Source of the DNA: a virus
Length of the DNA stretch: 64,000 nucleotides
Reading direction: 5' to 3' (one strand)
Virus record (IMG/VR): IMGVR_UViG_3300046804_004208
Span: 39,862-103,861 of that record
This document shows, piece after piece, positions 2,758-62,427 of the stretch. Numbering within the stretch: the first letter of the stretch is position 1; each line of letters starts with the position of its first letter. The notes under the pieces were generated by a model, which saw nothing but the letters and a program-made list of their open reading frames with translations, was not told the DNA's origin and ran no database searches. A program made the translations under genes and the position numbers.

Positions 2758-4437
2758 ATGGCAAAACTCTTTGGTTTCTCTATTGAAAATTCTGATCAAA
2801 AATCTAAATCAATTGTCTCCCCCGTTCCTCCAAATAATGAGGACGGGGTTGATAATTACATTGCTAGCGGTTTTTATGGTTCGTATGTAGATATTGAAGG
2901 GGTATATAGGACAGAATATGATTTAATTAAAAGATATAGAGAAATGGCATTACATCCTGAGTGTGATAATGCTATTGAAGATGTTGTAAATGAAGCCATT
3001 GTAAGTGATCTTTATGATTCACCTATAGAAATAGAACTTTCTAATTTAAATGCAAGTGATAGATTAAAGGAAGTTATAAGAGAAGAATTTAAATATATTA
3101 AGGAAATATTAGATTTTGATAAAAAATGCCATGAGATTTTTAGAAATTGGTATGTTGATGGAAGAATTTATTATCATAAAGTAATTGACTTAAAAAAACC
3201 AGAAGAAGGGATTAAAGAAGTAAGATATATAGATCCCATGAAAATGAGATTTATAAGACAACATAAAAAAGATAAAAATTCTATACCTGGTTCAAATCTT
3301 AATAGATTAGATGAAACAGAAAAATCTATTCATCCAGAAATAGAAGAATATTTTTTATATACACCAAAACCAAATTTTCCAGTTGGTGCTATTGCTAGTG
3401 TAGGTACATCTACAAAAGGAATAAAAATAGCAAAAGATTCTATTACTTATGTAACTTCTGGACTAGTAGATAGAAATAAAGGAAGTATTCTTTCATATTT
3501 ACATAAAGCAATTAAAGCACTCAATCAACTTAGAATGATTGAAGACTCTTTGGTAATTTATAGACTATCGAGGGCACCGGAACGTAGAATTTTTTATATT
3601 GATGTTGGAAATTTGCCCAAAGTAAAGGCAGAACAATATCTCAGAGATGTTATGCATCGTTATAGGAATAAATTAGTCTATAACGCTTCAACTGGAGAAG
3701 TTCGTGATGATCGTAAATTTATGAGTATGATGGAAGATTTTTGGCTTCCAAGAAGAGAGGGTGGTAGAGGAACTGAGATTACTACTCTTCCAGGTGGACA
3801 AAATCTTGGAGAACTTTCAGATATTGAATATTTTCAAAAAAAACTTTATAGAGCACTTGGAGTTCCAGAATCTAGAATTGCCTCAGATGGTGGATTTAAT
3901 CTTGGAAGATCATCAGAAATTTTACGTGATGAATTAAAATTTTCAAAGTTTGTTGGACGTTTGAGAAAACGTTTTTCATATTTATTCAATGATATGTTAA
4001 AGACGCAATTAATTCTTAAAAATATTATTACTCCAGAAGATTGGGAAAAAATTTCAGACCATATTCAATATGATTTTCTATACGACAATCAATTTGCAGA
4101 ATTAAAAGAATCGGAATTGATGACTGAAAGAATAACACTATTGGCATCAGTGGAACCATATATTGGAAAATATTTTTCCCAGGATTATGTTCGGAGAAAA
4201 ATACTTCGCCAAACAGACGCGGAAATTGTTGAAATTGACAAAAGAATTAAAAAAGAAATTGAAGATGGGATAATTCCGGATCCAAATTCTATTGATCCTA
4301 TTACTGGTGAACCATTACCTCCACAAAATGGAGAAGTGGGTCCTCTTGGAGAAGTTCCTCAAGAACCAAATCTTGATGCACAAGGAGCAGCAACAGATGC
4401 TCAGTTGCAAAAAGATACCAAAAAAGCTGAAATATAA
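2758..4437 (+). CDS. g20: Portal vertex protein
   Basis: YRLSRAPERRIFYIDVGNLPK and EDFWLPRREGGRGTEITTLPGG, classic g20 marker sequence. Confidence 0.99.
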   Translation: MAKLFGFSIENSDQKSKSIVSPVPPNNEDGVDNYIASGFYGSYVDIEGVYRTEYDLIKRYREMALHPECDNAIEDVVNEAIVSDLYDSPIEIELSNLNASDRLKEVIREEFKYIKEILDFDKKCHEIFRNWYVDGRIYYHKVIDLKKPEEGIKEVRYIDPMKMRFIRQHKKDKNSIPGSNLNRLDETEKSIHPEIEEYFLYTPKPNFPVGAIASVGTSTKGIKIAKDSITYVTSGLVDRNKGSILSYLHKAIKALNQLRMIEDSLVIYRLSRAPERRIFYIDVGNLPKVKAEQYLRDVMHRYRNKLVYNASTGEVRDDRKFMSMMEDFWLPRREGGRGTEITTLPGGQNLGELSDIEYFQKKLYRALGVPESRIASDGGFNLGRSSEILRDELKFSKFVGRLRKRFSYLFNDMLKTQLILKNIITPEDWEKISDHIQYDFLYDNQFAELKESELMTERITLLASVEPYIGKYFSQDYVRRKILRQTDAEIVEIDKRIKKEIEDGIIPDPNSIDPITGEPLPPQNGEVGPLGEVPQEPNLDAQGAATDAQLQKDTKKAEI

Positions 4438-39839: not shown

Positions 39840-39871
39840 ATAATCCAGGATACTCTTACACGGAGGATATT

Positions 39872-50649: not shown

Positions 50650-50797
50650 TCGTATTCATACTCTATGTGAAAAAAATATTGATAATGCCCATGCGATTCA
50701 ATCTGAATTTAGTGAGTGGTTGAATCCGGATATTTTAAATCATGATATTTTTTCATTAGAGTACATAGGAGAAGAAGATGACATTAGATCTTCATAA
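50600..50797 (+). CDS. Hypothetical protein
   Basis: 65-aa ORF overlapping both neighbours. Confidence 0.6.
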   Translation: MVTLEQTLRQTHDWAIDRIHTLCEKNIDNAHAIQSEFSEWLNPDILNHDIFSLEYIGEEDDIRSS

Positions 50798-51449
50798 CTT
50801 TTTTAAGTATTATGATGATAAGAACCCTAACCATGTTGCTGCGGTTCAATGGTTAGAGGATAATCTTCCAGAAAAATTTTTAGATGATGCACAATCAGAT
50901 TGGGTAAGTATTTTTAGAACTGCTCCGCCAACTCCTGCAGTTCTGGATGTTCCATACTTCAATCAGGTAGACAACTATAGAGATGCACATAGAACTTGCA
51001 ACTCTTCATCGTGTGCTATGTGCCTTGCTTTCCTCAAGCCAGGAAGCATTAAAGGTGATGATGAATACGTTAAGAAAGTATTTGCAATTGGTGACACAAC
51101 TGACCATGCCGTACAGACAAAAGTTCTTGCAGGTTATGGAGTTAAGTCACACTTTAGTTACAATCTTTCTTTTGCTGATATTGATAAGAGCCTTGATAGA
51201 GGCAAACCTGTTGTTATTGGTATTCTGCACAGGGGTTCTTTATCTGCACCTACTGGTGGGCATATGTGTGTTGTAATTGGTAAAACTCCTGATGGTAAGG
51301 GGTATTATGTAAATGATCCTTATGGTTCTTTAAACGATAATTATTCAGGTCCTGTGACTAACGGTAAGAAGACCATCTACACAAAAGCAGTTCTTAAGCA
51401 CCGTTGGTGTCCAGGAGGCAATGATGGGTGGGGAAGGATCTTCGACTAA
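50778..51449 (+). CDS. C39-like cysteine peptidase with shared N-terminal domain
   Basis: LDVPYFNQ, CNSSSCAM, GGHMCVVIG and VNDPYG (Cys-His-Asp triad). Confidence 0.88.
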   Translation: MTLDLHNFFKYYDDKNPNHVAAVQWLEDNLPEKFLDDAQSDWVSIFRTAPPTPAVLDVPYFNQVDNYRDAHRTCNSSSCAMCLAFLKPGSIKGDDEYVKKVFAIGDTTDHAVQTKVLAGYGVKSHFSYNLSFADIDKSLDRGKPVVIGILHRGSLSAPTGGHMCVVIGKTPDGKGYYVNDPYGSLNDNYSGPVTNGKKTIYTKAVLKHRWCPGGNDGWGRIFD

Positions 51450-51561
51450 TTTTAAAGCTAAGATGCTTAAGGTAATTAAGGATCTTACAAACAACGGAAA
51501 ACATAAGGAAGCAAACGAACTCTATCAAAAGTATTTCGGAGGAAACGATGGCAAGAGTTGA
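51421..51561 (+). CDS. Small hypothetical protein
   Basis: MMGGEGSSTNFKAKMLKVIKDLTNNGKHKEANELYQKYFGGNDGKS fills the gap between genes; start uncertain. Confidence 0.5.
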   Translation: MMGGEGSSTNFKAKMLKVIKDLTNNGKHKEANELYQKYFGGNDGKS

Positions 51562-51769
51562 TCTACATAACTTTTTTAAATTTTATGATGATAGAAACCC
51601 AAGTCATATCAAGGCAGTTCAATGGTTAGAAGACAATCTTCCTAATGATTATCTTGAAGATAATGCTGATTGGGCAGAAATTTATAGAGGTAAGGGTGGT
51701 GGATCATCTGCTGCTTCTGCTCCTGCTGGAGATGTATGTCCACATTGTGGTAAATCTCTGGGAAAGTAA
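51548..51769 (+). CDS. Shared N-terminal domain protein (0-frame product of the frameshift gene)
   Basis: GGAGG RBS; DLHNFFKFYDDRNPSHIKAVQWLEDNLP matches N-terminus of ORF 50778; CPHC; ends G GGA AAG TAA. Confidence 0.85.
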   Translation: MARVDLHNFFKFYDDRNPSHIKAVQWLEDNLPNDYLEDNADWAEIYRGKGGGSSAASAPAGDVCPHCGKSLGK

Positions 51770-51803
51770 GTAGCGGCAGTGGTGCTTCTGCTCCTGCTGT
51801 CGC
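51760..51803 (+). other. Putative programmed -1 ribosomal frameshift signal
   Basis: GGGAAAG heptamer in X XXY YYZ phase, 6-nt spacer, hairpin closed by GCGGCAG/CTGTCGC. Confidence 0.8.
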
Positions 51804-52281
51804 AAGTGGTGCTGACGATGTTCCAATGATGGGCATTAAGTTAATCAAGGAATTTGAAGGATGTCATTTATCGGCATATCCTGATCCTTTAACTGGTGGT
51901 CTTCCAATCACGATTGGTTGGGGTTCTACTAGAAATAAGAATGGGCAACCATTCCAAATGGGTGATAAGATTACCCAGCAAGAAGCAGATGAACTGCTAA
52001 TCAGTCAGTGCAAGAATCAATTCCTTCCTGCACTACGTAAAATCCCACATTGGAACGAGATGTCAGATGGAAAAAGAGGAGCTTTGCTCAGCTTTGCTTA
52101 TAATCTTGGTGCCGGTTTTTACGGTGGTGATAACTTTAATACTATTACTAAACGCTTGAAGAATAAAGAATGGGACTTAGTTCCCGATGCTTTATACCTA
52201 TACAGAAATCCTGGTTCAAATGTAGAAGCAGGACTTGCACGTAGGAGAAAAGCAGAAGGTGAAGCTTGGAAAAAAGGTTAA
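51760..52281 (+). CDS. GH24 lysozyme (endolysin) domain, -1 frame continuation of ORF 51548
   Basis: IKEFEG...YPDP...TIGWGST, ALLSFAYNLG and GLARRRKAE; frame open from 51754. Confidence 0.9.
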   Translation, partial: GKVSSGSGASAPAVASGADDVPMMGIKLIKEFEGCHLSAYPDPLTGGLPITIGWGSTRNKNGQPFQMGDKITQQEADELLISQCKNQFLPALRKIPHWNEMSDGKRGALLSFAYNLGAGFYGGDNFNTITKRLKNKEWDLVPDALYLYRNPGSNVEAGLARRRKAEGEAWKKG

Positions 52282-52299: not shown

Positions 52300-52716
52300 A
52301 TGGACAACAAAACTAAAAAAAGGGAAACTTGTATGAACACAGTGATCCGTGTTGCTATTCTTGGTTGGGCTGCTGCTCTTTTGACTGCAAGTTATGCAGG
52401 TGCTTTATCTAAGATGGACCCAACATTTATTGCGACTGTCTTTACAGCATCAGCTGCTACCTTTGGTATTAATACTATGAAGAAAGGTGATGACGATGAT
52501 GATAAAAAAGAAGAACCAAAAAGGGAAGAGTTTGTAGAAACTCCTCCTACACCACCAGAACCAGTTTGGGAAGAACCAGTTCAAAGAAGAACTGAAGAAC
52601 TACCTTTAGTTGATACTGGTTACTCTGAAGCATCAGATTCTTCACTTGAAGAACGAGTTGAAGCACTTGAAGCAAAAGTTGATGAAGAAAAACCATTTCA
52701 AAGAGGAGACCTCTGA
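52300..52716 (+). CDS. Two-TM membrane protein with acidic tail (holin candidate)
   Basis: Two hydrophobic helices; directly follows the endolysin. Confidence 0.55.
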   Translation: MDNKTKKRETCMNTVIRVAILGWAAALLTASYAGALSKMDPTFIATVFTASAATFGINTMKKGDDDDDKKEEPKREEFVETPPTPPEPVWEEPVQRRTEELPLVDTGYSEASDSSLEERVEALEAKVDEEKPFQRGDL

Positions 52717-52923: not shown

Positions 52924-53124
52924 ATGCCACGAGAATGGAACACTCCTAAAAGAGAGTGTTGGAACGGACCAATCCACAACATTCTGAAAGCAATAGATAA
53001 TCACACCCGCCTTCATATGGAGACGGGTGATTTTTGGCATGAAGAACAGGCCCAGATGTTGAGAAAGTATGTAAAAGACTTGAAAGTCTGGATACACAAA
53101 CAAGAAGGATGGTGGGATGAATGA
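52924..53124 (+). CDS. Hypothetical protein
   Basis: 66-aa Trp/His-rich ORF coupled to next gene. Confidence 0.65.
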   Translation: MPREWNTPKRECWNGPIHNILKAIDNHTRLHMETGDFWHEEQAQMLRKYVKDLKVWIHKQEGWWDE

Positions 53125-53867
53125 AAAAATTCCTCACAGCAATCGGTTTATCTTTAACTTTAAGTCTTCCAGCAATCGCAAATTCACTTCAACCAAAACA
53201 ACCTACAGTAAGACCTTATAGTTTAGAGGCAATGGGTTGTATGATACTTTTAGAATGCACTGAAGGTATAGAAAAATTATCAGCAGAAACAGAATTTTTA
53301 AAAGACCCAGACTTTGATCCTTTCAGAGAAGAAATAGTTAGGATTATAACTGCTCTTAATAAACTTGAAGTCCCTGTTTATGTTGCTCCAGAAAGATATT
53401 TTACGCCAAGAACTGTAGGACTTTATAAACCAAACTACAATCGTTTCTTCATCAATGAAACTCTATTAAAGGATGAAAGAGAGTTTCTTGGAACTCTAAG
53501 ACATGAAGGTTGGCATGTTGTTCAAGATGCTATGGGTGGTGGATTAAATACTGCATTTATGGCACAAGTTCATCAGGATAGTGAAATACCTGCTTGGGTG
53601 ATGAAAAATACAAGATTAACTTATGAGTCAATGATGCAGAGTCGTGCAGTTCCTTGGGAGGCAGATGCAAACTGGGCAGAGGAGCAACTCAATCAAACTG
53701 CTAGATATCTTGAAATGGCAGCAGAAAGACCATTATGGGAACAAGTTGCACCAACTCCACTTACAAAAGATTGGTTGATTGGATGTGGGTGGATGAAACC
53801 ACAAGATGGTTTGTATCCTTATTATCCAAACAAAAAAGTTCAGTATTGCACAGAGGGTAAGTATTAA
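53121..53867 (+). CDS. Exported zinc metallopeptidase-like protein
   Basis: N-terminal signal peptide; LRHEGWHVVQD (HExxH) and downstream EADA. Confidence 0.75.
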   Translation: MKKFLTAIGLSLTLSLPAIANSLQPKQPTVRPYSLEAMGCMILLECTEGIEKLSAETEFLKDPDFDPFREEIVRIITALNKLEVPVYVAPERYFTPRTVGLYKPNYNRFFINETLLKDEREFLGTLRHEGWHVVQDAMGGGLNTAFMAQVHQDSEIPAWVMKNTRLTYESMMQSRAVPWEADANWAEEQLNQTARYLEMAAERPLWEQVAPTPLTKDWLIGCGWMKPQDGLYPYYPNKKVQYCTEGKY

Positions 53868-62356: not shown

Positions 62357-62427
62357 GCGAATGTGGTGTAGCGGTAACATCCCATCCTTCCAAGTTGGTG
62401 TCACGGGTTCGATCCCCGTCATTCGCT
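62357..62427 (+). tRNA. tRNA-Gly(TCC)
   Basis: GCGAATG/CATTCGC acceptor with U73; loop CTTCCAA; TTCGATC T-loop. Confidence 0.9.

Follow-up and report, generated by a model that had tools for sequence, protein, structure and literature searches.

A probable programmed −1 ribosomal frameshift in the lysozyme gene of freshwater cyanophages

The window analysed here comprises 64,000 nt (positions 39,862 to 103,861) of IMGVR_UViG_3300046804_004208, a metagenome-assembled viral contig of 103,861 nt in IMG/VR, and among cultured phages it is closest to DSL-LC02, DSL-LC03 and S-SRM01, freshwater myoviruses of Synechococcus (Kyanoviridae). It carries a lysis locus in which a conserved programmed −1 ribosomal frameshift very probably joins a small N-terminal domain (N-domain) to a GH24 lysozyme. 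All features of the locus lie on the plus strand. The upstream gene (50778..51449, 223 aa) encodes a C39-like cysteine peptidase, identified by matches to Peptidase_C39_2 (PF13529; E 1.4e-14, 55.3 bits against a cut-off of 24) and to the PHROG 10051 'endolysin' family (E 1.6e-76); no solved structure is related to it by sequence. Alignment shows that its first part (50778-50918) is a copy of the N-domain that also opens the following open reading frame (ORF). This short 0-frame ORF (51548..51769, 73 aa) has a Shine-Dalgarno (SD) sequence, GGAGGA (51538..51543), 4 nt 5′ of its ATG, and encodes the N-domain (51548-51688), a Gly/Ser/Ala linker and the terminal residues VCPHCGKSLGK. The CPHCGK motif (51737..51754), a cysteine pair resembling a CPxCG knuckle, would be present in both the short and the long product.

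The short ORF ends CTG GGA AAG TAA, so that the slippery heptamer G_GGA_AAG (51760..51766) lies in X_XXY_YYZ phase and directly abuts the stop codon (51767..51769). Six nucleotides further on is a hairpin with a 7-bp outer stem (51773..51803), a putative stimulator of slipping. The −1 frame is closed by a TAA at 51751-51753 and then open to the lysozyme stop at 52279-52281; its part beyond the slip (51766..52281, 171 aa) encodes a Gly/Ser/Ala/Pro linker and a lysozyme matching Phage_lysozyme (PF00959; E 3.2e-22, 79.6 bits against a cut-off of 22.3), with the EFEG...DP...TIGWG motifs including the catalytic Glu region and with solved relatives 9kbq, 6et6 and 2anv. The trans-frame product would thus measure 73 + 171 = 244 aa. 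An earlier sequence-only reading of the window had proposed this ORF end, the heptamer and its phase, the hairpin and the −1 frame into the lysozyme, and every coordinate proved right.

To place the locus among its relatives, we scanned IMG/VR with the 73-aa protein, which returned at least 560 relatives, and analysed the best 80 loci; these sequences share ancestry, and counts among them are not counts of independent events. The gene occurs in three forms. In form A (39 of the 80 loci, and the isolates DSL-LC02 and DSL-LC03), a single continuous ORF of about 222 aa encodes the N-domain, an Ala/Pro linker and the lysozyme in that order, and form C (8 loci) is likewise continuous with a linker carrying C-P/S-K-C-G-K/R-G. 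In form B (33 loci and the window, spread over about 28 metagenome data sets), the 0 frame ends V-C-P-H-C-G-K-S/P-L-G-K-stop and the lysozyme is in the −1 frame; these 34 loci amount to 21 distinct segments and 25 distinct product pairs. Continuity in most homologues, which the sequence-only reading had named as an argument against frameshifting, is what forms A and C together display (47 of the 80 loci, with 32 frameshifted), yet the frameshifted form is conserved and widespread and does not resemble an isolated lesion.

Further searches agree with this division. A protein search returned 369 continuous N-domain proteins, and the best 120 of the 369 are all lysozyme fusions, whereas no record among the cultured phages searched contains the form B cassette. 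In the ESM Atlas, a 74-aa short protein has a viral cluster of 110 members, its own cluster being the only one returned. The exact 35-nt cassette of the window has no match in IMG/VR; synonymous sites differ in the relatives. Among the matches listed for a degenerate VCPHCGK pattern, most are unrelated zinc-ribbon genes, and six lie in the gene context, all six with the heptamer. In one form B locus (L034, around 3000-3030), part of the lysozyme is deleted internally: the frame is lost after ...IPHWNE, and the sequence continues from SFAYNLG in a different frame, so that the copy is either misassembled or defective.

The heptamer is in 0-frame phase at all 34 form B loci, and at all 34 the frame open from it into the lysozyme is −1 and never +1. 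None of the 21 distinct segments departs from it, even though each of the ten third codon positions across the 12 codons 5′ of it varies. Its glycine codon is GGA in 21/21, with the glycine three codons earlier ending in T (10), A (5), C (5) or G (1); its lysine codon is AAG in 21/21, the neighbouring lysine being AAA in 19 and AAG in 2. The leucine codon before these is CTG or TTG and no other CTN. A 0-frame stop always follows at the same place (TAA 14, TAG 7), so that both heptamer and adjacent stop, whose conservation the sequence-only reading had wished to see checked, are present throughout these segments. The −1 frame upstream of the heptamer is open for 6 to 93 nt in the relatives; its closure just 5′ of the heptamer, correctly pointed out in the window, is therefore not conserved and incidental. 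Downstream, variable sites in the lysozyme are distributed over the three codon positions as 50/23/134, and this concentration at third positions argues that the −1 frame is under purifying selection as a lysozyme; the corresponding figures for the N-domain of the short ORF are 18/11/41. Elsewhere in the window, a tRNA-Gly gene with anticodon UCC (62357-62427) reads GGA, the P-site codon of the heptamer, and five further tRNAs are encoded (Ala-UGC, Leu-UAG, Ile-UAU, Arg-UCU and Thr-UGU).

The hairpin of the window pairs GCGGCAG (51773-51779) with CTGTCGC (51797-51803), including one G-U pair, around an inner GG.GC/GC.CC helix, and is the minimum-energy fold of 51767-51830 (−22.5 kcal/mol). A contiguous 7-bp helix exactly 6 nt 3′ of the heptamer is present in 21/21 distinct sequences, compared with 4.2% of dinucleotide shuffles, while the loop varies from 11 to 17 nt. 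The nine stem haplotypes include G-U intermediates as well as clean double substitutions, such as GGGCAGC/GCTGCCC to GGACAGC/GCTGTCC and GGGCAGC/GCTGCCC to GGGCAGT/ACTGCCC. Alignment of 20 distinct downstream segments with MAFFT followed by RNAalifold misaligned the 3′ arms, since loop lengths differ, and gave a meaningless four-pair structure; we replaced it with anchored extraction and a covariance-model alignment, in which 98.4% of cells pair and both sides have changed at 6/7 pairs. None of 500 shuffles matches the observed values, and controls slid along the sequence reach at most 0.046 against 0.165. In the window, no T-run that would suggest a terminator follows the stem.

The N-domain is the other recurrent element of the locus. 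Over their first ~47 residues, the peptidase and the short ORF product share 65% identity, where the sequence-only reading had already proposed a common domain, and 18 columns are invariant across 65 sequences of both paralogues. The domain matches no Pfam family, its profile finds nothing credible among the sequences of the PDB (best E 0.1), and it was not found in 185,579 prokaryote species genomes except on two short contigs of metagenome-assembled genomes (MAGs), which are probably mis-binned phage; on sequence grounds, the domain is phage-specific. N-domain-lysozyme genes lie on contigs of 1-3 kb (L198, VGTM01000161.1, and P0050) binned into a 'Methanobacteriota archaeon' MAG and a 'Nanopelagicaceae bacterium' MAG, and these are most likely cyanophage fragments placed in the wrong bins.

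Structure prediction suggests that this domain pairs. A model of two copies of the 73-aa protein scored 0.66, compared with 0.02 for the best control. Among proteins of solved structure, this mark was attained by 20/30 homodimers and 1/23 single-chain proteins; contacts agree to at least 73%, and the partner has a pLDDT of at least 71. The predicted interface comprises residues 2-50, including columns invariant in both paralogues. The short protein is thus predicted to homodimerise, and since the short and long products have identical N-termini, the model also implies short-long pairing; pairing with the copy on the peptidase can be inferred from the conserved interface residues. The tail with the CPHC motif was not placed in the confident interface of the complex model, and we draw no conclusion about a zinc clasp from it. 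The motif itself is clearly selected at the protein level, because CPHCGK is kept as amino acids with synonymous codon changes across the 21 distinct sequences and a CPxCG-like motif is in frame in form C. Continuous fusions carry the cysteine pairs CPKCGKG, CSKCGKG, CSKCGRG or DCPRSDCPQ in their linkers (L041-L045, L057, L076, L085, P0005, P0012, P0022 and P0026), so that linkers with a pair of cysteines also recur where no frameshift is involved.

Based on these comparisons, we propose that a conserved programmed −1 ribosomal frameshift in this cyanophage lysozyme gene is the best explanation of the locus, and we hold it with high confidence. Ribosomes would start at the SD-led ATG at 51548 and make a helical domain of 47 residues, a flexible linker and VCPHCGKSLGK, and would meet the G+C-rich 7-bp hairpin 6 nt downstream with tRNA-Gly on GGA and tRNA-Lys on AAG. 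Most would stop at the adjacent TAA and release the 73-aa protein, and a fraction would slip back one base to GGG_AAA and continue through the second linker into the GH24 muramidase, giving the 244-aa product with the same N-terminus. If the N-domain is a dimerisation module, as the model suggests, the short form, the long form and probably the neighbouring peptidase could pair, and frameshifting would determine the proportion of partners with and without an enzyme. The sequence-only reading had claimed such a frameshift, yielding a free domain and a domain-lysozyme of about 244 aa, and this part is well supported by the relatives; its further claim, that these products and the domain-peptidase co-assemble or compete at a fixed ratio with a scaffold or inhibitor, stands at the level of the dimer model which it had asked for, where co-assembly of the three products is plausible. 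A more specific version is tentative, and we consider it rather less likely than not to be correct in full: that the frameshift is a stoichiometry device, the N-domain being a phage-specific obligate dimerisation module on both the muramidase and the C39 peptidase, and the 73-aa product setting whether a dimer has two, one or no catalytic heads. The abundant 73-aa product would then pair with either enzyme or with itself, and a metal ion or a disulfide may hold together the CPxCG half-knuckles of two paired linkers.

Starts without an SD sequence occur in cyanobacteria and their phages, and the locus could accordingly be read as two ordinary genes, with a former fusion split by a 71-nt insertion and the lysozyme starting at ATG 51826 or 51829 without such a signal. 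An ATG ATG pair does lie just 5′ of the lysozyme domain in 20/22 distinct versions, the annotated stand-alone lysozyme of S-SRM01 begins at the equivalent place, and partial independent initiation could coexist with frameshifting. However, in two loci (L018 and L019) the stretch from the heptamer to the catalytic EFEG lacks any ATG, GTG or TTG, and a third (L037) has only two TTG codons, inside the domain and 2 to 4 codons before EFEG. An SD-like motif precedes 21/22 distinct short-ORF starts compared with 2/20 first ATGs of the lysozyme, which bears out the lack of a ribosome-binding site first noticed in the window, and the same Met-Met is internal in the continuous relatives of forms A and C. 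The −1 frame linker upstream of the first Met encodes VSSGSGASAPAVASGADDVPMMGIK, which therefore could not be produced by independent initiation, and the 20-25 codons 5′ of the ATG are always open and linker-like in the lysozyme frame. Two separate genes would also leave unexplained why the heptamer is invariant amid varying synonymous sites, why the stop abuts it, and why the spacing is fixed at 6 nt before a covarying stem, and we regard this explanation as improbable.

Still less probable is that the stop and hairpin form an RNA element of some other role (processing, stability or a folding pause), the LGK residues being kept for the peptide and the lysozyme frame being incidental. The selection on CPHCGK at the protein level, its occurrence in continuous fusions and the folding of linker regions in continuous relatives would fit such an element, but selection on the peptide would permit GGN, AAA and CTN where only G_GGA_AAG occurs, the lysozyme frame would not be expected to be −1 at every locus and +1 at none, and the stem without a following T-run gives no hint of a terminator. 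Finally, a fault of assembly or sequencing, or an insertion that recently inactivated the gene in this one contig, might be suspected in a metagenome-assembled virus whose cassette is flanked by a 17-nt direct repeat and whose nearest isolates have a continuous gene. The same arrangement recurs in 33 other contigs from the ~28 data sets, however, and contigs from independent public sequencing runs, one of them from an RNA library, span the site without an indel, as the sequence-only reading had wanted verified; one of the spanning contigs belongs to a divergent strain, in which all changes to the upstream linker are in-frame and of 3 nt. In runs X3, X4 and X15 the depth across 51710-51770 is low, which we do not interpret because these contigs are of mixed strains. 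The recurrence and the spanning contigs refute this explanation as far as computation can do so, the strong third-position variation in the lysozyme also speaks against it, and we give it almost no weight.

Several points weigh against the programmed frameshift and the pairing built on it. Slipping itself and its efficiency are deduced from sequence and comparison, and some independent initiation at Met-Met is possible. In E. coli, G_GGA_AAG is reported to be very prone to slipping (PMC5009743), but this may not hold for the tRNA-Lys and tRNA-Gly of a Synechococcus host. The signal of the window alone is within chance, because GGGAAAG is not rare by itself (6 copies against 8.1 expected) and the hairpin has a z-score against shuffles of only −1.76; it is the comparison of relatives that lifts it above chance. 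The covariation alignment was itself fitted to the structure, and some partial rows in it are spurious. Ala/Gly/Ser/Pro linker DNA folds readily, the best 50-nt windows of continuous relatives averaging −17.6 kcal/mol, and hairpin stability by itself is therefore no evidence; position and covariation alone count. AlphaFold2 models the 73-aa protein poorly as a monomer (pLDDT 58, pTM 0.34, four short helices), and the dimer comes from one predictor, run with our own alignment and with a zinc ion included.

In tailed phages, −1 programmed frameshifting is textbook knowledge for tail chaperones and for a few capsid or polymerase genes. The lambda G/G-T tail assembly chaperone, reportedly described by Levin et al. 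in 1993 and by Xu, Hendrix and Duda in 2004 (the latter paper is cited in PMC5506516), uses the identical G_GGA_AAG, and also has in common with our proposal for the window a single start, short and long products with a common N-terminus in a ratio set by the slip, and late expression. However, that product is a tail chaperone and this one an unrelated lysis enzyme; in the window, moreover, the stop abuts the heptamer, a conserved hairpin lies 6 nt downstream and the extension is a catalytic domain. Nearest in logic to our proposal among known systems is OrfA/OrfAB of the IS3 family (e.g. IS911), in which a short, non-catalytic, multimerising N-terminal module gains a catalytic domain by frameshifting and the short form, which has the multimerisation surface in common with the long one, can modulate it. 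The heptamer there is A_AAA_AAG and the process DNA transposition, and experiments have demonstrated that the short form regulates, whereas here this is a proposal based on a model. E. coli dnaX has a stem-loop after a short spacer, like the window. Its X_XXZ_ZZG heptamer also ends in AAG and yields two products, tau and gamma, from one gene (review PMC5009743). Unlike in the window, the dnaX frameshift yields the shorter product and is stimulated by an upstream SD-like element, of which none is evident in the window cassette.

Two-form lysis enzymes are also made in other ways: CD27L, CTP1L and Lys170 give two products through an internal in-frame start, and PlyC is a multimer encoded by two genes. 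Ms6 LysA likewise gives two products from one gene via an internal in-frame start (PMC3111421). As in our proposal, such a lysis locus gives a full enzyme and a non-catalytic module able to assemble with it, but the internal-start endolysins use a second initiation site and not recoding, and their common module is the C-terminal wall-binding part and not the N-terminus. Full-text literature searches returned no paper reporting a frameshift-made endolysin or phage lysis enzyme, and none describing the GGGAAAG cassette or the A_AAA_AAG variant of S-PM2 discussed below. Two apparent leads did not alter this: phi-vML3, the one precedent cited, is presented in another source as a lysin with a smaller holin-like second product and not as recoding (PMC3111421), and was set aside, and the announcement of a Streptomyces phage BI cluster mentions putative frameshifts only 'near' endolysins. 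The mechanism is thus of a known kind, and its use for a two-form lysis enzyme is new to the literature searched.

The cassette of the window is flanked by the 17-nt direct repeat TGCTTCTGCTCCTGCTG, the first copy at 51712..51728 and the second, 71 nt apart at 51783..51799, also supplying the hairpin with its loop and part of its 3′ arm. Deleting one copy and the spacer (71 nt) gives a continuous 221-aa form A ORF like those of DSL-LC02 and DSL-LC03, and a single deletion could therefore turn form B into form A. A tree built from N-domain plus lysozyme intermingles the forms and does not recover form B as one clade (7 changes, at least 3 of them forced; bootstrap support is rough), which suggests that the cassette was lost or exchanged repeatedly; we claim no single origin or direction of change.

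Related phages join these two enzymes in other ways. S-CREM1 encodes a single chain of 393 aa in the order lysozyme, N-domain, peptidase. In S-PM2 (L004, NC_006820; 2176-2300), the C39 peptidase gene ends GCA AAA AAG TAA with A_AAA_AAG in phase, and the −1 frame reads KKVTSSTSRSKYDIPVKGVELIKEFEGCHL... straight into the catalytic region of the lysozyme, which explains why the 72-aa 'putative lysin' of the annotation is no more than the C-terminal piece. The S-PM2 type belongs to the same gene family as the window type, and in both an N-domain opens the 0-frame product and the lysozyme extension lies in the −1 direction. However, its 0-frame product is the whole peptidase, its heptamer is A_AAA_AAG and it lacks a CPHC motif, whereas the window has a separate peptidase gene and a lysozyme with its own copy of the N-domain. 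In S-SRM01 (L002, NC_070963; ~2350-2370), the peptidase gene ends GCA AAA AAG CAA TGA, with A_AAA_AAG two codons before the stop, and the −1 frame entered at this heptamer agrees in phase with the ATG annotated for the lysozyme, an ATG that overlaps the peptidase stop; judging from this arrangement, fusion by slipping and separate initiation are both possible.

Other genes adjoin the cassette. Between the peptidase and the short ORF lies a small ORF of 32 aa (51463-51561; MLKVIKDLT...YFGG...), whose stop overlaps the short-ORF start (ATGGCAAGAGTTGA). It occurs in related loci as seven protein variants conserved through synonymous DNA changes, is missing where the SD sequence directly follows the peptidase stop (e.g. 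L013, L017 and L023), and is probably a real, optional small gene. Just 5′ of the lysis genes, the ORF at 50188-50649 matches PHROG 447 (labelled 'NAD synthetase', E 1.4e-63) as well as homing-endonuclease PHROGs, and homing or GIY-YIG endonuclease genes likewise adjoin the lysin genes of S-SRM01 and S-CREM1. Downstream of the lysozyme, 52300-52716 encodes a membrane protein with DUF6450 (E 6e-15), and 53121-53867 a 248-aa protein with an N-terminal signal-like sequence matching PHROG 591. The lysin genes match PHROG families labelled 'endolysin', and with this membrane protein next to them their products may be true endolysins acting from within the cell or else virion-associated lysins. Both downstream proteins are possible lysis accessory proteins judging from their sequences; Pfam and PHROG searches of the downstream proteins gave no recognisable holin or spanin family match.

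Cyanophage lysis is poorly understood, and this locus suggests that a glycosidase and a peptidase are coupled via a small phage-specific pairing domain, a coupling achieved elsewhere by direct fusion (S-CREM1) or by frameshift fusion (S-PM2). If the frameshift is real, many cyanophage genomes and metagenomes would be misannotated at this point, with lysozymes called truncated or start-less and the 73-aa protein called 'hypothetical'. For studies of recoding, the cassette offers a natural frameshift signal of bacterial type that would have to work, or fail, on cyanobacterial ribosomes. If the stoichiometry device is also correct, it would represent a previously undescribed regulation of phage lysis enzymes in abundant freshwater cyanophages, with a parallel A_AAA_AAG solution in phages of the S-PM2 type.

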